Source: a virus. Taken from it: a stretch of 60,484 nt of DNA. This document shows, piece after piece, positions 1 through 56,937 of the stretch; position 1 is the stretch's first letter; every line of letters starts with the position of its first letter. The translations under genes were made by a program, and so were the position numbers. The DNA is taken from IMG/VR virus record IMGVR_UViG_3300035145_002886; one strand, 5' to 3'. Below the pieces are notes generated by a model that saw nothing but the letters and a program-made list of their open reading frames with translations, made no database searches and was not told the origin of the DNA.

Positions 1-100
1 TTTAGTTTTAAAGGTTTTGTTGTATAAGACAACCGTAATATTTTATCGTGTGCATCCCAATGATCTATTTTACCATTTTTGTAATCTGTCAGTATTTTAC

Positions 101-328
101 TTATTGGACTATACATCTCTCTTTGGTTTTAAAGGTTTGTTCTACTCTTTGGATTAGATACTTTACTTCATACTCTTCGTCATCAATAAACTCTTGCGCC
201 AATTCTAATGCGTTTTTATCATTGTACTCTTCAGCATACCACTTTAGTCCACCGATAATATCATACACAACATATTCATTAGGTGCTTCTTTCCATTTCT
301 TAATCAACTCTTGCATTGCTGTTTTCAT
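101..328 (-). CDS. small cassette protein, near-identical copy of 1419..1637
   Basis: 75-aa ORF MKTAMQELIKKWKEAP...FKTKERCIVQ, bounded by repeat A. Confidence 0.8.
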   Translation of the reverse strand: MKTAMQELIKKWKEAPNEYVVYDIIGGLKWYAEEYNDKNALELAQEFIDDEEYEVKYLIQRVEQTFKTKERCIVQ

Positions 329-489
329 ATCTCTTTAGTTTTAAAGGTTGAATCGTGCGGGTGAGGATGTTCTAAAAGATATCTATTCACCTCAAATGTT
401 ATCTTAAACAAATCCATATCAGAAGCAATACCTTCCATATGATTACCAATGACATTATCTAATTTGGTAAACAAGTCTGTTTTTTTCAT
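325..489 (-). CDS. small cassette protein (54 aa)
   Basis: Manually translated MKKTDLFTKLDNVIGNHMEG...DSTFKTKEI*; starts and ends in repeat A. Confidence 0.7.
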   Translation of the reverse strand: MKKTDLFTKLDNVIGNHMEGIASDMDLFKITFEVNRYLLEHPHPHDSTFKTKEI

Positions 490-617
490 CTGTACTTAGT
501 TTTAAACTCTTCATCATAAAGACCTAAATCTTCATCTCCTTTTATTATTTCAATTAGCAACCGCTTTCTTCTATTTGGTAGTAACCAATTCAGAAATTTG
601 TTGTAATGCTTTTTCAT
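486..617 (-). CDS. small cassette protein (43 aa)
   Basis: MKKHYNKFLNWLLPNRRKRLLIEIIKGDEDLGLYDEEFKTKYR*; ATGA overlap with the next ORF at its 3' end. Confidence 0.7.
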   Translation of the reverse strand: MKKHYNKFLNWLLPNRRKRLLIEIIKGDEDLGLYDEEFKTKYR

Positions 618-677
618 CTCTCTTTGGTGTTAAGGTGTAGACTATCACCACGAGGGGCTTCTCTGTGTCTTTTTCTT

Positions 678-965
678 TCATCTCTCTTTGGTTTTAAAGT
701 ATTTGTCGTAAAACTCTGATATATTCAATTCTTCTTCGGGCTTTGGAGGTATAGGGTAGCCATCCATAGTCAAGTTGTCTAATCCGTAGACATAGCGGTG
801 GTATGCCCCGCTAAACTTGATCATAAGCTCTTTCTCTTCCTTGAGTAGTTCTTTACGATTTTCTCGAATGTGGCAAAGTAGTATAACCCCTACGCTTACG
901 TCAACATATTTTTTTGATGACTTTGCTTCTAATTCTAATAGTTCTTGCACTGGTGTTGTTTTCAT
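678..965 (-). CDS. small cassette protein (95 aa)
   Basis: ORF track; MKTTPVQELL...YFKTKER; bounded by repeat A. Confidence 0.8.
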   Translation of the reverse strand: MKTTPVQELLELEAKSSKKYVDVSVGVILLCHIRENRKELLKEEKELMIKFSGAYHRYVYGLDNLTMDGYPIPPKPEEELNISEFYDKYFKTKER

Positions 966-1111
966 CTCTCTTTGGTGTTAAGGGTGTCTAAATAATTGTC
1001 TACACATTCGTCAGTTGTTTGAGAGGTTTTATCACTCTCAGAGTAATCAGCAAAATCAAGCAGCAGTTCTCGTATACTTTTAAATGTATTATTTTTAGTG
1101 CGTATTTTCAT
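962..1111 (-). CDS. small cassette protein (49 aa)
   Basis: MKIRTKNNTFKSIRELLLDFADY...DNYLDTLNTKER*. Confidence 0.7.
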   Translation of the reverse strand: MKIRTKNNTFKSIRELLLDFADYSESDKTSQTTDECVDNYLDTLNTKER

Positions 1112-1275
1112 CTCTCTTTGGTGTTAAAGGGTTTTTCTGCGTCAACATTTTGAACATTCTCAATAGCCTTATTTATAGCACTTCTAACTTCATCAGTCAT
1201 AGGCTCTCCACTTAATATAACGCTCCTTAAAAATGCTAAAGTCATATGCACCTGCTTTAATCTTTTGTCTTTCAT
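1108..1275 (-). CDS. small cassette protein (55 aa)
   Basis: MKDKRLKQVHMTLAFLRSVILSGEPMT...KPFNTKER*. Confidence 0.7.
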   Translation of the reverse strand: MKDKRLKQVHMTLAFLRSVILSGEPMTDEVRSAINKAIENVQNVDAEKPFNTKER

Positions 1276-1418
1276 CTCTCTTTGGTTTTAAATTATTATT
1301 GGGGGTTGTAAAACATTAAAACGATTTCACAAAAATGTATAAAAACAATAAAAAGTTATTACTCCCAATAAATAGCCTGTAAATACTGCTGTAATCAAAT
1401 CAAATCCGTTATATTTTT

Positions 1419-1637
1419 TCATCTCTCTTTGGTTTTAAAGGTTTGTTCTACTCTTTGGATTAGATACTTTACTTCATACTCTTCGTCATCAATAAACTCT
1501 TGCGCCAATTCTAATGCGTTTTTATCATTGTACTCTTCAGCATACCACTTTAGTCCACCGATAATATCATACACACCATATTCATTAGGTGCTTCTTTCC
1601 ATTTCTTAATCAACTCTTGCATTGGTGTTTTCTTCAT
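1419..1637 (-). CDS. small cassette protein, near-identical copy of 101..328
   Basis: 72-aa ORF MKKTPMQELIKKWKEAP...FKTKER. Confidence 0.8.
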   Translation of the reverse strand: MKKTPMQELIKKWKEAPNEYGVYDIIGGLKWYAEEYNDKNALELAQEFIDDEEYEVKYLIQRVEQTFKTKER

Positions 1638-1656
1638 CTCTCTTTGGTTTTAAAGG

Positions 1657-1854
1657 TTAGGATTTAATATAAGTAATTACCATCGCTTCAAGTTTATCAC
1701 CGAGCAACGGACTACCATAATTTTCAAACTTCATTTTAATACTTGGATAAACTTCCAACCCATTAGGGCATTGTATAATTAGTGGCAACTCCCTTTTGTC
1801 AGCACTTATGCTTTGAAGTTCTTTTATAAAGTCATTAATAGTTTTCTGTCTCAT
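1657..1854 (-). CDS. small cassette protein (65 aa)
   Basis: ORF track; ATG lies inside repeat A. Confidence 0.75.
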   Translation of the reverse strand: MRQKTINDFIKELQSISADKRELPLIIQCPNGLEVYPSIKMKFENYGSPLLGDKLEAMVITYIKS

Positions 1855-1877
1855 CTCTCTTTGGTGTTAAATCGTTA

Positions 1878-2099
1878 TTAGAGTAAGCTAATCTGTTTTT
1901 TTACTTCTTTCCAATACTTATGATTTAATCTATCGCTATCATAAATATTTGGATTATCATTTAGTATTTCATCTACGCAAATAATAGCAAAGGCTTTACC
2001 TTGTTCTCTTTGCTCTTTTAGTTCTTCATCTGTCATATCAAAAACAGATTTGCTTATAAATTTATTTGCTAATTCGTTTGCTTTTTCTTTTGGTGTCAT
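1878..2099 (-). CDS. small cassette protein (73 aa, MTPKEKANEL...YWKEVKKQI type)
   Basis: ORF track; ATG lies inside repeat A. Confidence 0.8.
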   Translation of the reverse strand: MTPKEKANELANKFISKSVFDMTDEELKEQREQGKAFAIICVDEILNDNPNIYDSDRLNHKYWKEVKKQISLL

Positions 2100-2120
2100 C
2101 TCTCTTTGGTGTTTATATAC

Positions 2121-2399
2121 TTAATATGATTTGATTCTCTTGATTTTTTCAGCAATTCTATTAGCCTGTTCTGTCATTGCTTTGTCTTCTGGGTTCTTAA
2201 ACGCCGCCCATAAAATATCGATGTTAAATCGACTAGCTCCGCCAATCTCTTTATCAATCCACTTACAAAACTCAAAGATTTCTTGAGCCTCATCAGCGAA
2301 AAGAGATTCTTCAGCGTATTCATATCCTTCGGTAAAATTTCCAGACATCCCAGCTCCCATTAAGAGTAGAGCTTTAGTTTCTTCAGATAGATTTGTCAT
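2121..2399 (-). CDS. hypothetical protein
   Basis: 92-aa ORF directly downstream of an early promoter. Confidence 0.8.
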   Translation of the reverse strand: MTNLSEETKALLLMGAGMSGNFTEGYEYAEESLFADEAQEIFEFCKWIDKEIGGASRFNIDILWAAFKNPEDKAMTEQANRIAEKIKRIKSY

Positions 2400-2408
2400 A
2401 ATTGTATC

Positions 2409-2460
2409 TTTTAATTACTATACTAATATAAACATTTTTCTTGACATAAAAAAATCTGAG
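2409..2460 (-). promoter_or_regulatory. early (host-sigma) promoter module
   Basis: Minus strand CAGATTTTTTTATGTCAAGAAAAATGTTTATATTAGTATAGTAATTAAAA; TATATT[A/T]G resembles the Bacteroidota -7 element TAnnTTTG. Related copies at ~4696-4745, 8012-8060, 10917-10965, 11176-11225, 12312-12360, 15754-15805, 16091-16140, 20666-20715, 22587-22635 and 38821-38866. Confidence 0.85.
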
Positions 2461-2470
2461 GCAATTATTT

Positions 2471-2689
2471 TTAACTTTTTTTCCAGCAGGTTATACCCTC
2501 TAATTTGACCTCAATTATTTTAGAATCCCGTTCTACTATTTTTTTAATGTAGGACTGTGGGTACTTAATCTTATCATAGACTCGAAAATGATTCTTATAG
2601 ATAACTTCGACCTTATATCCTCCCGGCTTTAAACTTAAGTGACTGGTTCGATATCCATCTCCTACAAAATATCCTCTATTCTTACTCAT
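2471..2689 (-). CDS. hypothetical protein
   Basis: 72-aa ORF in the ligase operon. Confidence 0.7.
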   Translation of the reverse strand: MSKNRGYFVGDGYRTSHLSLKPGGYKVEVIYKNHFRVYDKIKYPQSYIKKIVERDSKIIEVKLEGITCWKKS

Positions 2690-5999: not shown

Positions 6000-6017
6000 A
6001 ATTAAATTGTTTTTTTG

Positions 6018-6091
6018 TGGGCCCTGCAGGGCTCGAACCTGCGACCTACTGATTATGAGTCAGTTGCTCTAACCGGCTGAGCTAAGGGCCC
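6018..6091 (-). tRNA. tRNA-CAU (probably Ile2, lysidine type)
   Basis: Cloverleaf GGGCCCTTAGCTCAG...CT CAT AA...GGTTCGAGCC. Confidence 0.9.
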
Positions 6092-6160
6092 AAATAACCG
6101 GGTATTTGTTTTAAAGCTACCATAACCATCGCGAATGGGTAACTCCCGGTATTTACTCCA

Positions 6161-6228
6161 CTTGGACTCTCCTTTCGGTTGTAGGCGTGAGATTTGACGC
6201 CTCGTTGTTCGGCTTTCGCCTATCCAAG
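6161..6228 (-). ncRNA. small multibranch RNA with two GAAA tetraloops
   Basis: CUUGGA/UCCAAG closing stem, GGC-GAAA-GCC, AGGCG..CGCCU and CC-GAAA-GG. Confidence 0.5.
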
Positions 6229-6231
6229 AGC

Positions 6232-6348
6232 TGGGGAGTAGGGGATTCGAACCCCTACCTCTGCCTAACCAACTTAATCACACCGTGTAACTAGTATGAT
6301 GCTTTCTGTCTTAAGGTTGGAGCGTCGTACCACTTTGACTAACCCCCC
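6232..6348 (-). ncRNA. tRNA-like RNA with ~35-nt insertion in the anticodon arm
   Basis: Acceptor GGGGGGU/ACUCCCC, D arm, T arm AGGGG-UUCGAAU-CCCCU; CCAAC-CUUAAGA-[insert]-GUUGG. Confidence 0.7.
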
Positions 6349-6356
6349 GTATTTAG

Positions 6357-6430
6357 TGAACCAGACAGGATTCGAACCTGTGACCGTCTGCTTAGAAGGC
6401 AGATGCTCTATCCAGCTGAGCTACTGGTCC
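6357..6430 (-). tRNA. tRNA-Arg(UCU)
   Basis: Cloverleaf, loop CT TCT AA. Confidence 0.95.
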
Positions 6431-6444
6431 ATTCATTAAATTTG

Positions 6445-6530
6445 TACTCGAGGACGGGCTCGAACCGTCACGGACATTACTGCCCAAGGGATTTTAAGTC
6501 CCTCGTGTCTACCAATTCCACCACTCGAGC
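6445..6530 (-). tRNA. tRNA-Leu(UAA)
   Basis: Class II cloverleaf, loop CT TAA AA. Confidence 0.95.
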
Positions 6531-6533
6531 ATA

Positions 6534-6760
6534 CAGGTCCTAATTTCGTTTAGGACCAGGACGTGATCGGTTTAGGCTCTCAGCTCTAAACGATCAGCAG
6601 CTTACGCTGCTAGTGCAAATTCGTCGTTTGCGTAGATTAACCCACTCTCACTATCGCTATCAACCAATGTCAAAAGCCGGTCATCCCCATTGTAATTAAT
6701 GCCCTTGTGGAGATGGCGGGATTCGAACCCGCGTCCATCGATCCGCCAATAATGGTCATC
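6534..6760 (-). ncRNA. ssrA: tmRNA, circularly permuted (two-piece) gene; tag ANDEFALAA*
   Basis: The T-arm/acceptor 3' half GGACGCGGGTTCGAATCCCGCCATCTCCA (ends 6708) lies upstream of the 5' half GGGGATGACCGGCTTTTGAC (starts 6688). G3-U70 pair present; tag ORF at 6602-6631. Confidence 0.9.
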
Positions 6761-6773
6761 GAAGATTAATTTG

Positions 6774-6847
6774 TGGAGAATATCGGAGTCGAACCGATGA
6801 CCTCTTGCGTGCAAGGCAAGCGCTCTAGCCAGCTGAGCTAATTCCCC
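6774..6847 (-). tRNA. tRNA-Ala(UGC)
   Basis: Cloverleaf, G3-U70, loop CT TGC AC. Confidence 0.96.
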
Positions 6848-6853
6848 GTTAGT

Positions 6854-6930
6854 TGGCAGTCCAGACGGGACTCGAACCCGCGACCTCCGCCGTGACAGGG
6901 CGGCACTCTAACCAACTGAGCTACTGGACT
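6854..6930 (-). tRNA. tRNA-Asp(GUC)
   Basis: Cloverleaf, loop CT GTC AC, encoded CCA. Confidence 0.96.
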
Positions 6931-7204
6931 ATATTACACTTAGCGAGATTGACTAAGCTAGATTTTAACGGTTTAGTTTCCTCTTGAAACAAACAAACAT
7001 TAGTGTCTTACCACATAAAACTAAAAGTCAAGCTTTTGGGAGGCTCTACTATCCACCTTGATTCCCAGTCCCAGTATTTTAATCTTAAAGACCAGCTACT
7101 ACCTGTCTGATAGTCTTTCCTTCAATAAGAATTTCAGTTACCACCTGGGCATTAACTGAGGTATGTTAATGTTACCTAAACATCCAAGTATCTCTAACTT
7201 GGTT

Positions 7205-7292
7205 TGGCGGAAGATGTAGGATTCGAACCTACGGAGGTGTGACCCTCGCCGATTTTCAAGACCGGTGCATTCGACCACTCTGCCAATCTTCC
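7205..7292 (-). tRNA. tRNA-Ser(UGA)
   Basis: Class II cloverleaf, loop CT TGA AA, encoded CCA. Confidence 0.95.
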
Positions 7293-7317
7293 ATTGTTGA
7301 GATTTATATCTCATTAG

Positions 7318-7391
<74 letters not shown>

Positions 7392-7593
7392 ATATACTCT
7401 TTTTTTAAAATTAGCACTAAGAGAAACTAGCTTATCCTTTTAAAACTCTTAATACTTCGGGATTCAACCGCTCTAGTCTCAGGTTCAGCAGAACCATTCT
7501 GGTCGTTATTGACTAGCAACTCTTATAGTATATGGTGTCCATTTCTTCATCAATAGAGTGATAAGTCGTATTGATTACTCGAACAGTTTTTTG

Positions 7594-7667
7594 AGCCTCT
7601 TGAGGGATTCGAACCCACGACCTGCTGATTACAAATCAGCTGCTCTGGCCAGCTGAGCTAAAGAGGC
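7594..7667 (-). tRNA. tRNA-Thr(UGU)
   Basis: Cloverleaf, loop TT TGT AA. Confidence 0.95.
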
Positions 7668-7742
7668 AAAGGGGGACTTAGAACCTCGGTCTTATGCAAC
7701 CTAGGATTTTCTGCAGCCTGTTCATAGTCCCCAGTAAAATTG

Positions 7743-7815
7743 AGCAGAAGACGAGATTCGAACTCGCAACTTCCAGCTTGGAAGGCTGGCGCTCTACCAA
7801 TTGAGTTACTTCTGC
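7743..7815 (-). tRNA. tRNA-Gly(UCC)
   Basis: Cloverleaf, loop CT TCC AA. Confidence 0.95.
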
Positions 7816-7821
7816 TAATTG

Positions 7822-7903
7822 TGCGGATGGAGGGACTCGAACCCACAAGCCGTGAAGCACTGGTGCCTAAAACCAGCGTGTCTACCAATTTCACCACATC
7901 CGC
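7822..7903 (-). tRNA. tRNA-Leu(UAG)
   Basis: Class II cloverleaf, loop TT TAG GC. Confidence 0.95.
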
Positions 7904-7911
7904 ATAAATTG

Positions 7912-7983
7912 TAGCCCCTAGGAGAATCGAACTCCTCTTTCCAGGATGAAAACCTGGCGTCCTAACCGATAGACGAAGGGGCC
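7912..7983 (-). tRNA. tRNA-Glu(UUC)
   Basis: Cloverleaf, loop TT TTC AT. Confidence 0.95.
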
Positions 7984-7990
7984 ATGGTGC

Positions 7991-8006
7991 CAATATGTCA
8001 AAGAAC
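7991..8006 (-). promoter_or_regulatory. boxA-like antitermination element
   Basis: GTTCTTTGACATATTG just downstream of an early promoter; identical copy at 10894-10909 and variant GTTCTTTACATAA at 11158-11170. Confidence 0.7.
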
Positions 8007-8104
8007 TTCTTCTTTTAATTATATTGCTAATATAAACAAAGTTTTTTAAACCTGAAAATATTTTGCAACTTTTTTTTAACTCTTTTGAGTACACGTCTGA
8101 GTTG

Positions 8105-8176
8105 CGACCCTGGTAGGATTCGAACCTACGACCAATAGATTAACAGTCTACTGCGCTACCGCTGCGCCACAGAGTC
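8105..8176 (-). tRNA. tRNA-Asn(GUU)
   Basis: Cloverleaf, loop CT GTT AA. Confidence 0.95.
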
Positions 8177-8177
8177 T

Positions 8178-8287
8178 TTATGTATAAAATCATAAGATAT
8201 TTGAATCCATTTTTGTGGTTCGTTAAACATATCTTTCCACTTTATTCTTAAAACTTGCCAACCATTTTCAATGGCTAACTTGTCTTT
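8178..8287 (-). pseudogene. C-terminal remnant of a DUF559/Vsr-like endonuclease
   Basis: Frame KDKLAIENGWQVLRIKWKDMFNEPQKWIQISYDFIHK, preceded by an in-frame TAA and with no start codon. Confidence 0.55.
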
Positions 8288-8327
8288 TTAATACTTGTGA
8301 GTATTATATAACCCTTTTCCTAATTGT

Positions 8328-8789
8328 TTATTGAATTGTATCGGAATCTAAGATTACTACGTCTGGAATAACGATCGGTCTTATTTCAATATGGTCCTCC
8401 TGTCCTCTAACTGGCTTTTGAGTATAGCAGTAGATTGGGTGGCCATCCATATCATAGTAAAAGTATTCCTTCGTTGTTGGATCTAAGAATGCCCTATAGA
8501 TACCATTATTTTCATCAACGTATATAATTTTACCTGTTTCCGTGTCCGATCTGAGGCCGATTGAAAAGCTTTTACCTTTATTAGTCCTTGCCTCTTCGTA
8601 ATCTTGAATGTGCTGTTCGATCTTTTCCATTGATTCATTAATTTGTTGGTATTGATGAACCAGTTTATTCAGATCGCTGGCATAATTAATTACAGGGCGC
8701 ACATAGCTAATCAGGGTTATCAGTGCCCCGATTGCAGTGATTACAAAGATCACGTTGCTTGCCTTGTCTTTAAATACTTTAAATGCCAT
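8328..8789 (-). CDS. hypothetical membrane-anchored coiled-coil protein
   Basis: 153 aa with an N-terminal TM segment; GATATATA late motif at 8794-8801. Confidence 0.8.
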   Translation of the reverse strand: MAFKVFKDKASNVIFVITAIGALITLISYVRPVINYASDLNKLVHQYQQINESMEKIEQHIQDYEEARTNKGKSFSIGLRSDTETGKIIYVDENNGIYRAFLDPTTKEYFYYDMDGHPIYCYTQKPVRGQEDHIEIRPIVIPDVVILDSDTIQ

Positions 8790-8811
8790 ACATTATATAT
8801 CATTTAGTTTG

Positions 8812-8885
8812 AGGCGAAGGTTGGATTCGAACCAACGAATAACGGGTTTGCAAGCCGCTCCCTTAGACCGCTTGGGTACTTCGCC
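8812..8885 (-). tRNA. tRNA-Cys(GCA)
   Basis: Cloverleaf, U73, anticodon GCA. Confidence 0.9.
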
Positions 8886-8887
8886 GA

Positions 8888-8965
8888 TGGGGTGACCGAT
8901 CGGGTTTGAACCGACGACCTCCTGAACCACAATCAGGCGCTCTAACCAGCTGAGCTACGGACACC
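8888..8965 (-). tRNA. tRNA-His(GUG)
   Basis: G-1, C73, loop TT GTG GT, encoded CCA. Confidence 0.95.
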
Positions 8966-8969
8966 ATAT

Positions 8970-9046
8970 TGGTTGGAAGGGGCGGGCTCGAACCGCCGAC
9001 CTCTACATTATCAGTGTAGCGCTCTAACCAACTGAGCTACATTCCA
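8970..9046 (-). tRNA. tRNA-Ile(GAU)
   Basis: Cloverleaf, loop CT GAT AA, encoded CCA. Confidence 0.95.
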
Positions 9047-9054
9047 ATCTTTTG

Positions 9055-9127
9055 TCGGGATACCAGGGCTCGAACCTGGGACCTCCACGTCCCAAACGTG
9101 GCGCGCTACCAACTGTGCTACATCCCG
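9055..9127 (-). tRNA. tRNA-Pro(UGG)
   Basis: Cloverleaf, loop TT TGG GA. Confidence 0.95.
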
Positions 9128-9202
9128 TGGTCCGTATTTAGGGATATTTCTTAACCACCTCCTCAGCTCGGCAGCGGACATATCTGTCTCGTCTCGGTGG
9201 TA

Positions 9203-9284
9203 AATACTTCATAGTAGGATTCGAACCTACACCTATTCCTACATTTGCAACTGCGGTGATAGTGCCAACTTTTCCAAAAGTATT
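9203..9284 (-). ncRNA. degenerate tRNA-like RNA
   Basis: AAUACUU/AAGUAUU closing stem and a perfect T arm GUAGG-UUCGAAU-CCUAC; D and anticodon arms are poor. Confidence 0.5.
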
Positions 9285-9286
9285 TG

Positions 9287-9359
9287 TGGTTTCTACTGGA
9301 TTCGAACCAGTGACGCTCGGCTCTTCAGGCCGACGCTCTACCAACTGAGCTAAGAAACC
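9287..9359 (-). tRNA. tRNA-Phe(GAA)
   Basis: Cloverleaf, loop CT GAA GA. Confidence 0.95.
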
Positions 9360-9364
9360 AAACT

Positions 9365-9470
9365 CGTTCTACTGTCAGACTCGAACTGACATCCAGCCTT
9401 TCTGGTACTCTATGTACTATAGAGCAATCGGAGTCGAAACTGATGTGTTGCCTATTACACCAAGTAGAAC
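9365..9470 (-). ncRNA. tRNA-like RNA with 8-bp acceptor, T-loop in the anticodon position and two extra arms
   Basis: GUUCUACU/AGUAGAAC; D arm; AUCAG-UUUCGACU-CCGAU; two hairpins; GUCAG-UUCGAGU-CUGAC. Confidence 0.7.
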
Positions 9471-9474
9471 TTTG

Positions 9475-9548
9475 TACACCAGGAAGGATTCGAACCCTCA
9501 ACCTCCTGATCCGTAGTCAGGTGCTCTATCCAGTTGAGCTACTAGTGT
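9475..9548 (-). tRNA. tRNA-Arg(ACG)
   Basis: Cloverleaf, loop CT ACG GA. Confidence 0.95.
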
Positions 9549-9554
9549 ATTTAG

Positions 9555-9629
9555 TGGCAGGAGTGGGACTCGAACCCACGTCATTCGGCTTATGAGACCG
9601 AGCTGGAACCACCTCCAGTCCATCCTGCT
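9555..9629 (-). tRNA. tRNA-Met(CAU), atypical D arm
   Basis: Loop CT CAT AA, 1:72 mismatch, D arm CTGGA-GGTGGT-TCCAG. Confidence 0.85.
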
Positions 9630-9635
9630 ATATTG

Positions 9636-9710
9636 TGGGAAATATAGGATTCGAACCTATGACCCCTTGCTTGTAAGGCAAGTGCTCTGAACCAACTGAG
9701 CTAATTTCCC
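9636..9710 (-). tRNA. tRNA-Val(UAC)
   Basis: Cloverleaf, loop CT TAC AA. Confidence 0.95.
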
Positions 9711-9713
9711 GTT

Positions 9714-9805
9714 TGCTAGGGCAGGATTCGATACCTGCACGAAATGTCTCCACTCGAGTTGGACATTTTACGGAAGTCCGCGCCTCTATCTTGGGCTACC
9801 TAGCG
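9714..9805 (-). ncRNA. tRNA-like RNA lacking an anticodon loop
   Basis: GCUAGG/CCUAGC acceptor, D arm, GCGG-ACUU-CCGU mini arm, long variable arm AAAUGUC..GACAUUU, T arm GCAGG-UAUCGAAU-CCUGC. Confidence 0.65.
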
Positions 9806-9863
9806 CTTTTGCAAAATTTCTATGGTAGTGGCACCTTTACGCGGCCAATTGCTCTACTTGCGA

Positions 9864-9970
9864 TGGTTGATATGAGAGGATTCGAACCTCTTTACCTCCG
9901 CTCAACTATCCGCTCCGACTTTTACCAGAGAGATAGGAGGAACAGTGTGCCCACTACACTACTATCAATC
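9864..9970 (-). ncRNA. tRNA-like RNA with extended anticodon arm
   Basis: Long acceptor-like stem, D arm GUGU..ACAC, ~45-nt hairpin, T arm AGAGG-UUCGAAU-CCUCU. Confidence 0.6.
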
Positions 9971-10017
9971 GACAGTTTCGAACCTGTCAGTCTTAGGTTA
10001 ATTACTCCTAAGATTTG

Positions 10018-10099
10018 TTGGCAGGGAGGGATTCGAACCCCCGTACTCAATGAGAAAAGATTTACAGTCTTCCGCCTTTAACCACTCGGCCACCTACCA
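10018..10099 (-). tRNA. tRNA-Tyr(GUA)
   Basis: Class II cloverleaf, loop CT GTA AA. Confidence 0.95.
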
Positions 10100-10107
10100 A
10101 TATTTAA

Positions 10108-10196
10108 AAACACAACTCTATCTCCTTTGAGTGTTCAGGGTTGACATTGCCATTTTTCAGGTATTCTTACATATCCGTACTCCCTTAGTTGTGTTT
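10108..10196 (-). ncRNA. 6S-Flavo-like RNA
   Basis: Perfect 10-bp closing stem AAACACAACU/AGUUGUGUUU, with GGGAGUACGG and AACCCUGAAC motifs. The family assignment is from recall and was not searched. Confidence 0.5.
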
Positions 10197-10197
10197 G

Positions 10198-10270
10198 TGA
10201 CCCCTCAGGGGCTCGAACCCTGGACTCCCTCATTAAAAGTGAGGTGCTCTACCAACTGAGCTAAGAGGTC
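10198..10270 (-). tRNA. tRNA-Lys(UUU)
   Basis: Cloverleaf, loop CT TTT AA. Confidence 0.95.
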
Positions 10271-10273
10271 AAT

Positions 10274-10364
10274 ATAGATGAATAGAGGATTCGAACCTCG
10301 CTACAATTTAACTCCATTATAACAACCTGAATCGAACAGGACACGACCAACTCGCTTCATCTAT
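10274..10364 (-). ncRNA. tRNA-like RNA with two T arms
   Basis: 9-bp AUAGAUGAA/UUCAUCUAU; D-like arm; CCUG-UUCGAUU-CAGG; extra arm; GAGG-UUCGAAU-CCUC. Confidence 0.7.
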
Positions 10365-10367
10365 TAG

Positions 10368-10443
10368 TTGCGATTGAGGAATCGAACCTCGGAGGGGAGC
10401 TACCCAATACGTCTCATGAGAACGTCTCTGTACCACCATCGCA
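10368..10443 (-). ncRNA. D-arm-less tRNA-like RNA with CAU anticodon
   Basis: UGCGAU/AUCGCA; ACGUU-CUCAUGA-GACGU; variable arm GGG..CCC; T arm GAGG-UUCGAUU-CCUC. Confidence 0.6.
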
Positions 10444-10453
10444 TTAATATTTT

Positions 10454-10620
10454 ACTTCTAAAACTTCCCATTGGTTTACCCAGAAGGAATCATTCTAAAC
10501 CTTTACTGCAGTTAATCAGTTTAGCCTGGTTGAAGATCACCAATTTCTTACGAGCTTTCTCATCAACTCGGTGGTGAACCGAGCCTAGATACCAATACTA
10601 ACTCTACAACTTTTAGAAGT
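10454..10620 (-). ncRNA. ~165-nt structured RNA, unknown family
   Basis: 10-bp closing stem ACUUCUAAAA/UUUUAGAAGU, internal AUUGGU/ACCAAU and CUCGGU..ACCGAG hairpin. Confidence 0.5.
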
Positions 10621-10713
10621 CTTAAACTAAATTTGAGTTGCAAACGTTGTAGGTCTCTTTGCAAATCTATCCTACCGCTTCTACGTTCCCTTTCGGGCTC
10701 CATTAGTTTAAGA
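10620..10713 (-). ncRNA. ~94-nt structured RNA, unknown family
   Basis: 11-bp closing stem UCUUAAACUAA/UUAGUUUAAGA, CCC-GAAA-GGG and GUAGG..CCUAC. Confidence 0.5.
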
Positions 10714-10718
10714 ATTTG

Positions 10719-10789
10719 TTACCAGGCCTAGATTCGAACTAGGATTTTCTGAGTCAAAGTCAGACGTGCTGCCGTTGCACCACCCGGCA
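10719..10789 (-). tRNA. tRNA-Gln(UUG)
   Basis: Cloverleaf, loop CT TTG AC. Confidence 0.93.
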
Positions 10790-10992
10790 ATTATTAAGAG
10801 AGCCGGTCTCTCTAAGACTTACTTAAGCATATCAGCTGGGCCGTTAGACCAGCGTTCATATCAAAAGTAATATCTGTATTTTCTTAATTTTGCCAATATG
10901 TCAAAGAACTACTTTGTTTTAATTACAGTGCTAATATAAACATTATATTTGACACTGAAAAACTTTTTTCAACTTTTTTTCAAAGTTTTTTG

Positions 10993-11079
10993 CGGAAAGT
11001 AGAGGATTCGAACCTCTGGATCCCTCTCGAGATCAACTCCTTAGCAGGGAGCCACAATCGACCGCTCTGTCAACTTTCC
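10993..11079 (-). tRNA. tRNA-Ser(GCU)
   Basis: Class II cloverleaf, loop CT GCT AA. Confidence 0.95.
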
Positions 11080-11085
11080 AATTTG

Positions 11086-11156
11086 CACGTCCACAAGGAT
11101 TCGAACCCTGATCAACGGTTTTGGAGACCGCTATTCTACCATTGAACTATGGACGT
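11086..11156 (-). tRNA. tRNA-Trp(CCA)
   Basis: Cloverleaf, loop CT CCA AA. Confidence 0.95.
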
Positions 11157-15744: not shown

Positions 15745-15821
15745 GTGTATTGCTTTTAATTATAGTACTAATATAAACATTTTTCTTGACATAAAAAAAT
15801 CTGGATTGAATTTTTTTCAAA

Positions 15822-16082
15822 TTATTTTTCAATCCAAACCTCTCCATCCTCTGCTTTACGGACGATTCCATAAATAGGGACTGGGTAGTACATTGTTCTG
15901 ATATGACCTTGACTGCCCTTTTCTACGGTCATTGTAAACCAAGGTTCATTATAATACTCTTCTAGCTTTTCGCTTCTACACTTAAGAGTTCCCATCAAGG
16001 TTCCACCTGCAAATTTAAAGATATACTTCTCTCCAATTTTTGGTTTCTTAACTGCTACTACTTGTTTTGCCTTTTTAGCCAT
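15822..16082 (-). CDS. hypothetical protein
   Basis: 86 aa, after an early promoter. Confidence 0.75.
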   Translation of the reverse strand: MAKKAKQVVAVKKPKIGEKYIFKFAGGTLMGTLKCRSEKLEEYYNEPWFTMTVEKGSQGHIRTMYYPVPIYGIVRKAEDGEVWIEK

Positions 16083-20649: not shown

Positions 20650-20759
20650 TTCTTTTGCTTATGTATTTAATTACAGTACTAATATAAACCTTTTTCTTGA
20701 CATAAAAAAATCTAGAGGCAATTATTTGATCTCTTTGGTTTTAAATTACTTTATGGTGT

Positions 20760-20948
20760 TTATTGGCTTAGTTCCAATTTTCTTACCAACCAACCTCCAA
20801 CATCAATTTCATCACTCTTCCTAAATATTCTCCAAACCCTACCTTTAATAATTAATTCATCATTAATTGGTTGGTAAAGAAAATCATCAATCCTTTTGGC
20901 TACTGTCCCGTCAGGGTAGTAAATTAAAGTCTGTACTTTTTGTGTCAT
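20760..20948 (-). CDS. small cassette protein (62 aa)
   Basis: ORF track; ends in motif B. Confidence 0.7.
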   Translation of the reverse strand: MTQKVQTLIYYPDGTVAKRIDDFLYQPINDELIIKGRVWRIFRKSDEIDVGGWLVRKLELSQ

Positions 20949-20999
20949 AATTTCATCTTAAACTGTTTGTATGGTGTTTATTGGGGGTTAGCATTAATA

Positions 21000-21155
21000 C
21001 TAACCACATTGGTCTAAATTGTCGTAAACCTCTTTGCTTGGACATATTCTAATATGGAATAGGTACAAGCTAATTAATATAAATTCAGAACATTTGTAAT
21101 AATCAAATATTCTTCCTTTTCCAACTCCTTTTCCTTTAATAAATTTTATATACAT
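21000..21155 (-). CDS. small cassette protein (51 aa)
   Basis: MYIKFIKGKGVGKGRIFDYY...NLDQCG* between motif B copies. Confidence 0.5.
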   Translation of the reverse strand: MYIKFIKGKGVGKGRIFDYYKCSEFILISLYLFHIRICPSKEVYDNLDQCG

Positions 21156-21223
21156 AGTAGGGTGTTTATTGGGTGTTGTAGGAAATTAAAAAAGACATAC
21201 AACACAGAATATAAATAATAAAA

Positions 21224-21367
21224 TTACTTACCTAACTGCTTTTTAAGTTTTGTGTGTTCTTCAACAAGCTTATTGTGCTTATCAATTAATTCCCTGAGTA
21301 TTCTTGTGGCTGTATTTGCCCAATCTTTTGTATTTGGTAAATCTTCTGTTATTTTTAATTTTTCCAT
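21224..21367 (-). CDS. small cassette protein (47 aa)
   Basis: MEKLKITEDLPNTKDWANTATRILRELIDKHNKLVEEHTKLKKQLGK*. Confidence 0.65.
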   Translation of the reverse strand: MEKLKITEDLPNTKDWANTATRILRELIDKHNKLVEEHTKLKKQLGK

Positions 21368-21402
21368 ATCCGTAATTTTATCTTAAACTAATTGTAGGGT
21401 GT

Positions 21403-21678
21403 TTATTGGGGGTTATGCACATGCGTACTATCAACCCACCAATCGTTGTAATCATTATATCTTACACTTTTAGCATTTGCTATTAAGGTTTTCCCATTTT
21501 TAGGATTGTATTCTTTAAAGAAGTATTTTTTACCTTTATAAGTTACTTCTTGGTTTTCAGCAAAAGTACGTGTGGTAACATCTTCAAATTCATTCAGCAT
21601 TTTTATACAGTTTTGTACTATCCAATCAGGTGTATTAATACCTAGATGCTTCTTAATTAGTTTTTCTTTTTCACTCAT
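21403..21678 (-). CDS. small cassette protein (91 aa)
   Basis: Starts in repeat A and ends in motif B (NPQ*). Confidence 0.75.
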   Translation of the reverse strand: MSEKEKLIKKHLGINTPDWIVQNCIKMLNEFEDVTTRTFAENQEVTYKGKKYFFKEYNPKNGKTLIANAKSVRYNDYNDWWVDSTHVHNPQ

Positions 21679-21708
21679 CTCTCTTTGGTTTTAAATTGTT
21701 ATTGGGGG

Positions 21709-21852
21709 TTAGCAACCATTTACCCACCAAGTCAAACAATTTTTACAAGCGTATGAATTATTGGTTAAGGTAGTTTTATAACCTTTACTTCCACAGGTAG
21801 GGCAAACAGGTTTGCTAACAACACCTAAACTTTTAATTTCTTCTTCACTCAT
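21709..21852 (-). CDS. small zinc-ribbon cassette protein (47 aa)
   Basis: MSEEEIKSLGVVSKPVCPTC...ACKNC...*. Confidence 0.65.
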   Translation of the reverse strand: MSEEEIKSLGVVSKPVCPTCGSKGYKTTLTNNSYACKNCLTWWVNGC

Positions 21853-21971
21853 CTCTCTTTGGTTTTAGGTTTAATAAGGCACTTTGTGCATATTCTATAG
21901 AGTGGCAAACTTTGTGGTATTTTATCTCCACACTGAACGCACCTCTTTTCTTTTATCTCTTTTTCATTCAT
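21849..21971 (-). CDS. small zinc-ribbon cassette protein (40 aa)
   Basis: MNEKEIKEKRCVQCGD...ICTKCLIKPKTKER*. Confidence 0.65.
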   Translation of the reverse strand: MNEKEIKEKRCVQCGDKIPQSLPLYRICTKCLIKPKTKER

Positions 21972-21974
21972 TGT

Positions 21975-22580
21975 TTACATTAAACTTTTAGGAATGTAAA
22001 GAACAGTTGGGTTCTTTTTCTGAATATCAATCTCAGGATAACTTTTCTTAAACTCCATTACGTCAAACCTTTCGGTAATTAAATGTACTCCGCTTTTAGT
22101 TGGAATGGTTGCGATAATTTTATCGCCTAAAGGTCTACATAATTGAATCGAAAGTATAATACTTGAAACTATAGAAGCATCTTTAGTATCTATATCAACG
22201 ACCCATCGTTTTTCTTGTGTCTTAATCTGACCAACCACAGAGTTAAAAACATGTTGTTGATTAATCTGTCCACTCTGTACTCGGTCAACAATAGTCTTAA
22301 TCATATTCATGCCGACATCAAAGTGACTCTGCTTTTGAACGTGAATATATGCTCTGGCTTTAAAGACTTCACATAGGGTTTTAATCTCATCGTAGCGTTT
22401 TTCGAGGTACTCAACTGAACTAATCGTATAGGTCTTGATAGTCCTTACCGACTGATGGTTATCACGTTCTCCTTCAGGTTGGTCCTTCTTGCGCTTCATT
22501 ACATAAAGCATATAGAAGTCACCCTCTTTTTCGAAGTTGAGTAACTCTTTAATCTGTTCTATGTTGTCTATTGCTTTCAT
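21975..22580 (-). CDS. hypothetical phage protein (WVVDID, TKSGVHL motifs; primase-like fold possible)
   Basis: Start moved to MKAIDN (22580) because an early promoter occupies 22587-22635. Confidence 0.8.
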   Translation of the reverse strand: MKAIDNIEQIKELLNFEKEGDFYMLYVMKRKKDQPEGERDNHQSVRTIKTYTISSVEYLEKRYDEIKTLCEVFKARAYIHVQKQSHFDVGMNMIKTIVDRVQSGQINQQHVFNSVVGQIKTQEKRWVVDIDTKDASIVSSIILSIQLCRPLGDKIIATIPTKSGVHLITERFDVMEFKKSYPEIDIQKKNPTVLYIPKSLM

Positions 22581-22696
22581 ATTCTGTTTAATTATAGTAT
22601 AAATATAAACAAAAAAGCTGAGATAAAAAAATCTCAGCTTAATTTTTTTCAATTTCTAACTCTTCGCCATTCCATTGGTCGTCCCAGTAAATAAAA

Positions 22697-55827: not shown

Positions 55828-56937
55828 CTAGTCCTCTGTTTCTTCCATCAATTCTTCATAATCAAATTCAACTTCAGTGCTGTAGTTAAATATTGTTTTG
55901 ATTTTCTCTTCTATTTTTTCAAGAACCTCTTGTGTAAATACCTTCTCTGTAAAGAATTCACTGTTTGGTACTGTGTGGTCAAGGTGCTTACAGATCCAAT
56001 TACGTGCTGTTTTCTTAGGAACATATTCACCCTTTTCAATTGTACCTTTTGTGATGCCAATGTCTTCCCAGTCGATGTATTGCTCAAGGCCAACAAAACG
56101 GTTCATACCCTCGCTAAAGTGCAGGTGGAATTTAATATTGGTTGGTTTCGCAAAACGATTTTTGTTTGGTCTTGCCGTAACAATAATACCGGCTTTTTCT
56201 CCGCTTGAATCTTTAAGCTGTGCTTTTCCTAAGAATAGAACAATAGATGCTGCGTATTCAGGACCGGTACCACCGCCTGCAACTTGACGACTAATAAAGT
56301 CCTGTGTTTGGTATGTGTGATTCGTAAAAATAAAAGGTACCTTAAGATCTGCAAGTGGAGTCATAATAATACGGAAGATTGACTTAAGAATCTTTGAACG
56401 TGTCATATCACTCTTTTCAGAACCACTAACTGCGTCATCAATTTCTTTTTGAGTTGCAAGGTTACCAGCAGAATCAAGGATAATCATCATCTTTGGAAGA
56501 TCAGCTCCACCGCGTTTTGCCTCTTGCATTCTTTTTGTAATTGTAGTCACAGAAGATCTAAACTCTTGAACAGTGTTGATCGGCTGATAGTTAACTTTAT
56601 CAGTATCGATTCCAAACTTTTTCATTAAGGTTTTATCAACTGCTGCTTCTGAATCATAGAAGATCACGTTATAACCCATATCAATTGCTCTACGGATAGA
56701 ATTTAAAACTAGATATGTTTTACCAGTACCTGAAGGACCGGCGATAGAACACGACCTGTTATTTGGCCATCCGCCAAAAAGACTTCCTGATACACATGCA
56801 TTAAGGTGATAATTACCAGTGTCAATCCACTCTGTAACATCACTAAATGTTGAATTAGACATAACAGAACCTAGCGGGTTTAGCGTTGCTAGCTCTGCAT
56901 TAATGTCATCAAAACTAAATTGTTTACTTTTTGCCAT
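55828..56937 (-). CDS. uvsX: RecA-like recombinase (UvsX)
   Basis: GPSGTGKT, YDSE, ILDS, NHTY, GGTG and KNRF. Confidence 0.95.
   Translation of the reverse strand: MAKSKQFSFDDINAELATLNPLGSVMSNSTFSDVTEWIDTGNYHLNACVSGSLFGGWPNNRSCSIAGPSGTGKTYLVLNSIRRAIDMGYNVIFYDSEAAVDKTLMKKFGIDTDKVNYQPINTVQEFRSSVTTITKRMQEAKRGGADLPKMMIILDSAGNLATQKEIDDAVSGSEKSDMTRSKILKSIFRIIMTPLADLKVPFIFTNHTYQTQDFISRQVAGGGTGPEYAASIVLFLGKAQLKDSSGEKAGIIVTARPNKNRFAKPTNIKFHLHFSEGMNRFVGLEQYIDWEDIGITKGTIEKGEYVPKKTARNWICKHLDHTVPNSEFFTEKVFTQEVLEKIEEKIKTIFNYSTEVEFDYEELMEETED

Follow-up and report, generated by a model that had tools for sequence, protein, structure and literature searches.

A short stop-start joint and the shuffling of microgene cassettes in phages

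Integrons combine IntI, attI and attC with a row of promoterless single-gene cassettes that stand, in free order, behind one promoter. In phages, the PeSL cassettes of the T4-type phages RB49 and phi1 (Arbiol et al. 2010, PMC2839356) have also been likened to integrons by their authors, and the Discussion of the same paper describes the Botstein-Campbell 'linker' sequences of modular phage evolution. For the Start Associated Sequences (SAS) of Cluster K mycobacteriophages, a role in translation initiation has been proposed (PMC3203893). Here we analyse a row of microgene cassettes headed by a short repeat, which we call the joint, at positions 1-2115 of a window of 60,484 nucleotides (nt), the whole stretch of DNA under study (IMG/VR record IMGVR_UViG_3300035145_002886); window position 1 is the end of a contig of 166,616 bases from an uncultured aquatic T4-like jumbo phage, probably with a host among the Bacteroidota. 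We regard it as probable that the joint is a translation joint and at the same time a handle by which recombination reaches a gene pool common to different phage types. Whole genes are likely gained, lost and reordered exactly at the joint, and the probable agent is the short-homology recombination of the phages themselves, not an integrase.

Change of cassette neighbours at the joint

The original prediction, made from the window alone, described twelve full copies and one partial copy of a repeat at irregular spacings of 64-284 nt, and this is what the row contains: twelve copies at such spacings, plus one cut by the contig end. A scan of the window with TTAAMACCAAAGAGAGATG, allowing up to three mismatches, gave 13 matches, all on the minus strand, 11 of them within 114-2115 and the other two, at 21676 and 21850, in a second small row; 100 shuffles, which served as chance control, gave a mean of 0.08 and never reached 13 (0/100). 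Across the whole contig, close copies are restricted to the 114-2115 row and these two positions. With its usual flanks (AAACCT ahead of the 19-mer and A behind it) the 19-nt repeat extends to 26 nt, and the consensus of 623 unique junctions reads AAACCT TTAA(C/A)AC(C/A)AAAGAGA(A/G) ATG A. An in-frame TAA lies 15 nt 5' of the ATG and the ATGA overlap closes a second frame, so that two of the three incoming frames stop within the joint. Neither a stable hairpin nor a dyad was found in it (folds at -0.2/-0.8 kcal); there is no inverted repeat tied to it in the window row, and no Rfam match in window 1-2600. Every joint copy ends in the ATG of an open reading frame (ORF) of 31-95 codons. The original prediction also held that almost every interval is one ORF whose ATG, and often whose predecessor's C-terminus, come from the repeat. 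In six of eleven intervals the ORF ends in the ATGA overlap (with ..KTKER-type ends), in three the ORF stops 19-51 nt ahead of the next ATG, in one it continues 16 nt beyond the next ATG (the next start being ATGT), and in one, of 64 nt, there is out-of-frame read-through. Judged from this geometry, the cassettes would be translationally coupled.

Three scans of viral contigs for the joint returned at least 124, at least 121 and at least 124 loci (an estimated 320, 470 and 150 stretches), and 386 loci contributed the 623 unique junctions with full flanks. At these junctions, 391 left and 365 right flank families form 601 different pairings; 579 pairs of junctions share the left flank alone, 695 the right flank alone, and 21 both. 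Since pairs within one family are not independent, the profile of linkage across the joint was weighted by family. Identity drops from about 0.95 to about 0.3 within a few bases of the repeat. In a first, smaller set, the upstream neighbour had changed in 67 of 79 comparisons and the downstream one in 72 of 78, and BLAST alignments ending inside rows did so at a repeat in 225 of 279 cases (86.5 expected). Cassettes were found in reversed order between loci (L030/L100 and L339/L070), one 187-nt cassette has eight different downstream neighbours in eight loci, neighbours are almost fully randomised even for cassettes that are at least 94% identical, and units of 65-96 nt move whole. Interval lengths have a median of 209 nt (108-419 nt from the 5th to the 95th percentile), 294 of 340 fit the two stop modes, and each phage has one joint cluster. 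The original prediction of homology-driven shuffling with breakpoints at the repeat is therefore supported by where identity switches, and the comparison of cassette order among relatives, which it had set as its own test, leaves it standing, as order is almost never conserved (adjacent pairs recur in 9 of 308 cases).

Near-identical copies of the window's own cassettes occur elsewhere as well. Two runs (X1 and X2) hold the phage itself, and X3, X4, X5, X8, X13 and X19 were used in addition, X6-X7, X9-X12, X14-X18 and X20-X24 being left out. Among the pieces listed, five row cassettes were matched at 97-100% in the further runs, two of them with foreign DNA on each side: 962-1126 in X4 (3 differences) and 1270-1439 in X19 (5 differences). 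The stretch 1417-1653 was matched in X3, X4, X5 and X19, 964-1135 in X3, and 1896-2106 in X3 with 0 differences; 1134-1275 in X3, with 19 differences (87%), was left out of the count of five, and X8 and X13 gave short, repeat-sized pieces of the row only. The core of the genome is matched in X4 at only 88-90%, and uncovered core in X3, X5, X8, X13 and X19 is not read as absence of the phage. The contigs give no link from cassette to core. Joints that skip cassettes, as candidate deletions or circles, were not used, their sides being under 30 nt and the contigs holding two repeats.

With repeats this short, the apparent shuffling might largely be the work of assemblers mis-joining contigs from mixed populations. 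Rows do lie close to contig ends (32 of 77 within 250 nt, 4.3 expected), and among the X1 and X2 pieces listed none bridges the joints at 114, 326, 963, 1109, 1420 and 1852 with 31 nt on each side; the joints at 487, 615, 679, 1273, 1635 and 2097, however, are bridged without a difference in both runs. The row of a close relative, G001, recurs with the same order of seven repeats in two assemblies (L133 and L134), syntenic flanks enclose a whole row in one genome and none in another, and the base at -1 is uniform within rows (0.79 versus 0.48), a signal that random joining would erase. We consider mis-joining a very unlikely account of the shuffling as a whole; because rows break assemblies and six of the twelve window joints are unbridged in the listed pieces, the exact cassette order in the window may be one of several. 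Contig depth is 2.2-2.8 times that of the core at window 1449-1624, 1715-1865 and about 1007 in both X1 and X2, which we read as extra copies, carried by co-occurring phages or by the part of the genome that the contig lacks.

The joint could also be a signal for translation or coupling and nothing else, with rare illegitimate recombination whose products survive selection when broken at gene boundaries. Translation start regions of Bacteroidota have A at -3, -6, -12 and -13 and no Shine-Dalgarno sequence (PMC6847099). In keeping with such a role, the joint lies exactly at start codons, its boundary with the gene being the repeat itself, it shares with Flavobacterium starts an A at each of -14, -13, -11 and -6 (frequency 0.99 at -13 and 0.96 at -6), and one chromosomal copy starts pdxJ in Winogradskyella. 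Yet the joint is confined to rows: none of 115 long ORFs begins within three mismatches of it, taking the first Met as start. Conservation of its core does not depend on which upstream frame is open and is as high where there is no read-through; the joint is far more conserved than known start determinants. From these observations and the partial match to start preferences, translation by itself is, as far as sequence comparison goes, insufficient to account for the joint. The 601 pairings, re-formed even between nearly identical cassettes, and the movement of very short units as wholes argue in the same direction, and we rate a pure expression signal as unlikely.

The linkage profile points to where exchange would take place. 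Bases -6 to -1 ahead of the 19-mer follow the upstream cassette (0.95-1.0) and the bases past the ATG follow the downstream one, and the variable core positions 4, 7 and 15 follow neither side tightly (0.65-0.78, background 0.51-0.58). A single fixed crossover point was rejected on this profile, as the three positions are fully linked to neither side. Duplication of the repeat in the manner of CRISPR was also rejected, given that copies next to each other resemble one another no more closely than copies further apart do (P 0.40, 0.65 and 0.93) and that the intervals are irregular. The core pattern is compatible with strands that anneal over the full length of the joint, mismatches then being repaired towards one side or the other; it is equally compatible with staggered cuts at the edges of the joint.

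Recombination modules of the carriers

The carriers are aquatic phages, most of them small, and the complete ones with exonuclease VIII measure 31-63 kb. The exonuclease VIII family DUF3799 is present in 18 of 24 carrier records and in all six complete ones, and about ten loci have the same layout, in which Erf or a 177-residue protein, the exonuclease and one or two short genes are followed by the row. Of 33 cargo ORFs in the jumbo phages, 7 match homologues elsewhere at 79-93% nt identity, four of them in exonuclease VIII loci, and these matches show that the T4-like jumbo lineage (about 280 kb) has cassettes in common with small phages of another type. The jumbo phage analysed here encodes a UvsX-like recombinase (55828-56937, minus strand; phrog_97, E 1e-61), the only recombinase found in its contig.

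The 177-residue protein occupies the Erf slot beside exonuclease VIII at L070:4381-4920 and in five relatives. Its structure model has a pLDDT of 66, its Atlas neighbours carry PF27148 (Slr1353_N), and a VIA comparison gave Z 5.4-5.6 and rmsd 4.6-4.7 over 96-97 aligned residues, tied with unrelated dsRBD folds; a sequence search of the PDB gave no match. To judge by the model, it is possibly an unannotated family of annealing proteins.

In the mechanism that we propose, the A-rich joint would act as a Bacteroidota translation start, and any gene inserted between two joints would come under the operon promoter and be coupled to its neighbour. The common stretch of about 26 nt would be annealed during co-infection, by single-strand annealing proteins together with exonuclease VIII in the small phages and by UvsX here. 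If a heteroduplex formed over the core, the variable bases there would be expected to track neither neighbour, and the joint would be kept uniform because only matching joints open the common gene pool. Minimal pairing lengths are given in PMC3945230 as 23-27 bp for Red-beta and 31-34 for RecA; the former is close to the length of the joint, which supports exchange by annealing proteins.

Several considerations weigh against the joint as a recombination handle worked by the phages' own enzymes. The evidence comes from contigs and no exchange has been seen directly. The joint is also a gene boundary, so that some of the breakpoint pattern is expected from selection for intact genes, and just one pair, 95% identical up to the repeat, probes a non-coding tail. 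As a start signal the joint departs from Flavobacterium preferences, with G at -3 (0.95) and C at -12 (0.69) where A is preferred, and expression of the row genes is predicted from sequence. As a pairing substrate, 26 nt is short for a RecA-type protein such as UvsX. Among the jumbo cargo ORFs, 26 of 33 have no homologue in the sampled loci. DUF3799 and Erf were not found in G000, G001 and G014, all of which are incomplete, and the 177-residue protein is only weakly Rad52-like (RAD52 in the top rows of Foldseek, best E 1.5e-3, TM 0.3). The suggested link with Erf and exonuclease is drawn from phages with rows, and early variable genes are a usual setting for such modules.

Instead of the phages' own short-homology recombination, a dedicated enzyme of phage or host origin, possibly acting in trans and not recognised as such, might cut or exchange strands at defined edges of the joint, which would make the row a true cassette system. 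The very sharp edges and the loose linkage of core positions 4, 7 and 15, as staggered cuts would leave them, are compatible with this, and the contig, rated 59% complete, leaves room for a further gene. The searches speak against it: PF00589 tyrosine recombinases were found in none of 32 carrier virus records, seven complete ones included, and PF00239 resolvases in none of 24, and the contig itself, at its 59% completeness, yielded no tyrosine recombinase, resolvase, reverse transcriptase or Rad52. The joint, moreover, lacks a dyad and a stable hairpin, the linkage profile rules out one fixed crossover, and adjacent copies are not more alike. Such an enzyme therefore seems improbable to us. 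The integron-like platform first suggested for the row is not supported, given the same searches, the lack of a fixed crossover and the site of the row, which is not fixed in relatives. In a bolder version, which we hold to be equally doubtful, aquatic Bacteroidota phages would share one cassette system across the whole community without an integrase. A dedicated activity, as yet unrecognised, would work at the TTAA and ATG edges of the 26-nt joint, carry single microgenes, perhaps in circular form, from one phage type to another unrelated one, and so supply a common library of hundreds of counter-defence or host-takeover peptides.

Two other arrangements were encountered among these loci. A complete 44-kb phage (G031) has at L152:2000-4200 another cassette-like system, in which the ORFs have ..AACG at their ends and contain an inverted GTT.. 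copy; its record has no PF00589 match and no joint copy, and it has codons 14-44 of the window cassette 962-1111 in common with the window. In L041, L070, L073 and L099 a recurring mini-ORF of 8-9 codons follows the joint, and then a third start linker heads unrelated ORFs, as nested linkers.

The row in the window, its cargo and its relatives

The row reads on the minus strand, as do the anchor gene, the promoter-like motif and the second row described below. An early promoter had been placed at 2409-2460, and a promoter-like repeated motif is present there, one gene upstream of the row; it is one of 15 matches in the contig, most of which carry TATATTTG, and its -7 box, TATATTAG, is one base off the Bacteroidota consensus (PMC6847099). 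The intervening gene, at 2121-2399, is a conserved anchor gene of 92 residues. The first joint (2097-2115) heads an ORF of 73 residues at 1878-2099 that matches phrog_21441, of unknown function. It is followed by an ORF of 65 residues at 1657-1854 with its joint at 1852-1870, one of 72 residues at 1419-1637 (joint 1635-1653), a hydrophobic one of 31 residues at 1327-1422 (joint 1420-1438), one of 55 residues at 1108-1275 (joint 1273-1291) and one of 49 residues at 962-1111 (joint 1109-1127), which runs into the joint at 963-981. Three of these units are among those found in other runs: 962-1127 at 98-99% in X3, X4 and X19, with foreign DNA on both sides in X4; 1270-1439 at 97% in X19, again between foreign DNA; and 1419-1653 at 98-99% in X3, X4, X5 and X19.

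Beyond an ATGA-coupled ORF of 95 residues at 678-965 lies the 64-nt unit (615-697), between joint copies at 679-697 and 615-633. It had been taken for a local out-of-frame relic, which cannot be upheld: two loci (L375 and L388) have an intact cassette of 65 nt and 22 codons that is 92% identical, stands beside other neighbours, is one base longer and ends in the usual overlap. By this comparison, the unit is a shared 65-nt cassette short of one base, and hence reads through. An ORF of 43 residues follows at 486-617, with homologues (79% nt) beside other neighbours in L079 and L114, then a degenerate joint at 487-505 (4 mismatches) with an ATGA-coupled ORF of 54 residues at 325-489, and a joint at 326-344 (2 mismatches) with an ORF of 75 residues at 101-328, which has a homologue at 89% nt in L161. 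The last complete joint, 114-132, starts an ORF at 3-116 that runs off the contig, and a cut copy occupies 1-11 at the contig end; no terminal repeat was found in the contig, whose record as searched begins at window 143. The ORFs at 101-328 and 1419-1637 are the duplicated cassette that the original prediction had noticed, their common stretch being 213 nt at 99% identity (114-326 versus 1420-1632). A duplicate flanking seven cassettes would be the expected remnant of a single crossover through a shared cassette. Its search against viral contigs gave none among 16 candidates, and its protein search gave 20 relatives, with just a 0.76 match in the Atlas.

The sampled cargo comprises 526 unique ORFs with a median of 60 residues, those of at least 30 residues falling into 199 families. 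Few resemble anything described: 17 of 149 scanned proteins have any Pfam match (HNH, HTH, methyltransferase, zinc ribbon and others), NCBIfam gave one weak match in 29, and PHROGs gave one unknown family and weak helicase matches. The ORFs of row 1-2115 have no Pfam match and no informative family. The original prediction had made the cargo a candidate for anti-defence or host takeover, and these matches give evidence neither in favour of such a role nor to the contrary. In the largest cluster (94 ORFs; for example L004:3778-4017 and L006:2118-2339), N- and C-terminal motifs are common and the middles are variable, a pattern that suggests exchange inside genes as well.

Four loci were found by a search with the ligase, and one of them is close, the relative G001 (about 90% identical), which is syntenic with the window in high-scoring segment pairs of 82-96% nt identity. 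Homology between the two stops at 2121, just ahead of the first joint; beyond it, other genes take up about 2 kb of G001 before six ORFs headed by the joint follow, none of them in common with the window. At 15817-15822 (no strand assigned) the window has an empty site where G001 has a 4.1-kb row with 15 joints. Conversely, the second row of the window (20658-22669), with joints at 21676-21694 and 21850-21868, a truncated copy near 20726-20744 and four copies of a second linker, CCCCAATAAACACC, is replaced by 165 nt in G001. These four copies lie within 20760-21971, and the cassette 21709-21852 has an inner GTTAGCAA plus an inverted copy at its end, an arrangement that we take to be attC-like in appearance. 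Among 19 metagenome loci with the anchor gene, several of them short and one (L133) the G001 contig itself, the joint directly follows that gene in none and occurs further down in six. From the differences with G001 and from these anchor-gene loci, the row is, in our comparison, a recent, lineage-specific load and not a fixed platform. Behind the anchor gene of L146 and L148 stands a native gene start (TAAAACCAAAG..ATG) that resembles the joint and is a possible entry point for a first cassette.

The contig encodes a T4-type major head protein and a sigma factor besides the UvsX-like recombinase. Its promoter motif TATATTTG fits the Bacteroidota -7 box TAHHTTTG (PMC6847099), from which we infer the host. 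Matches in metagenome-assembled genomes comprise 12 loci, with five Flavobacteriaceae/Flavobacteriales rows from three genomes, one in Saprospiraceae and five in other taxa; possibly mis-binned phage contigs, they point weakly to the same host. A prophage row was considered for the Winogradskyella match and rejected, as this is a single copy at the start of pdxJ. Comparison of the row, and of that of G001, with 50,697 GenBank phages by blastn gave short matches only (in 1 and 6 records, respectively). A cluster of 25 tRNA genes lies at window 6017-11156, G001 having 26, and G000 has dense collagen-like coding repeats in tail-fibre-type ORFs at about 154,000-158,400 (window-extended coordinates).

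Comparison with described systems

A literature search returned no description of this joint or system, most subscription papers and supplements lying outside it. As a simple tag, the joint retrieves about 200 families of mobile, mostly unannotated microproteins for screens in Flavobacteria, and the spread of phage ORFans becomes directly testable through it.

With SAS the joint has in common that it is a short, non-palindromic repeat in one orientation, fixed at the ATG of non-structural genes (PMC3203893). In the account of SAS given there, however, the sequences are found 3-7 bp upstream of the start, across the right half of the genome, and are not tied to shuffling, whereas the joint itself contains a stop and the ATG and is where breakpoints fall. 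The resemblance to integrons lies in single-gene cassettes that have no promoter of their own and follow one promoter in any order, this promoter being recognised here by motif only; the row differs in that no tyrosine recombinase was found and that there is no dyad symmetry, fixed crossover or fixed platform.

The likeness to PeSL cassettes goes further. Both consist of a repeated expression signal ahead of small ORFs of unknown function in variable regions of a T4-like genome, both show gain and loss between close relatives at the repeat, and for PeSLs too the paper describes no integrase beyond the phage's own recombination genes (PMC2839356). In PeSLs, however, a promoter and a terminator hairpin set each gene apart, and mini-circles between neighbouring PeSLs were shown, according to the same account; the joint, known from contigs, is a 19-26-nt sequence that has neither hairpin nor promoter, the promoter motif lying outside the joints, and chains genes in one operon. 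In addition, the sequence of the joint is common to phage types, from phages of 31-63 kb to T4-like ones of about 280 kb. In the linker model as described in PMC2839356, conserved flanks give homology for exchange and place a module for expression, which is what we propose for the joint; in the rows, each module is one microgene and the linker recurs many times, so that order is free. The joint thus offers a measurable case of the old linker model at the scale of single genes, with one joint across phages of very different sizes and types. The system works like PeSL-type shuffling, and it is neither PeSL nor integron.

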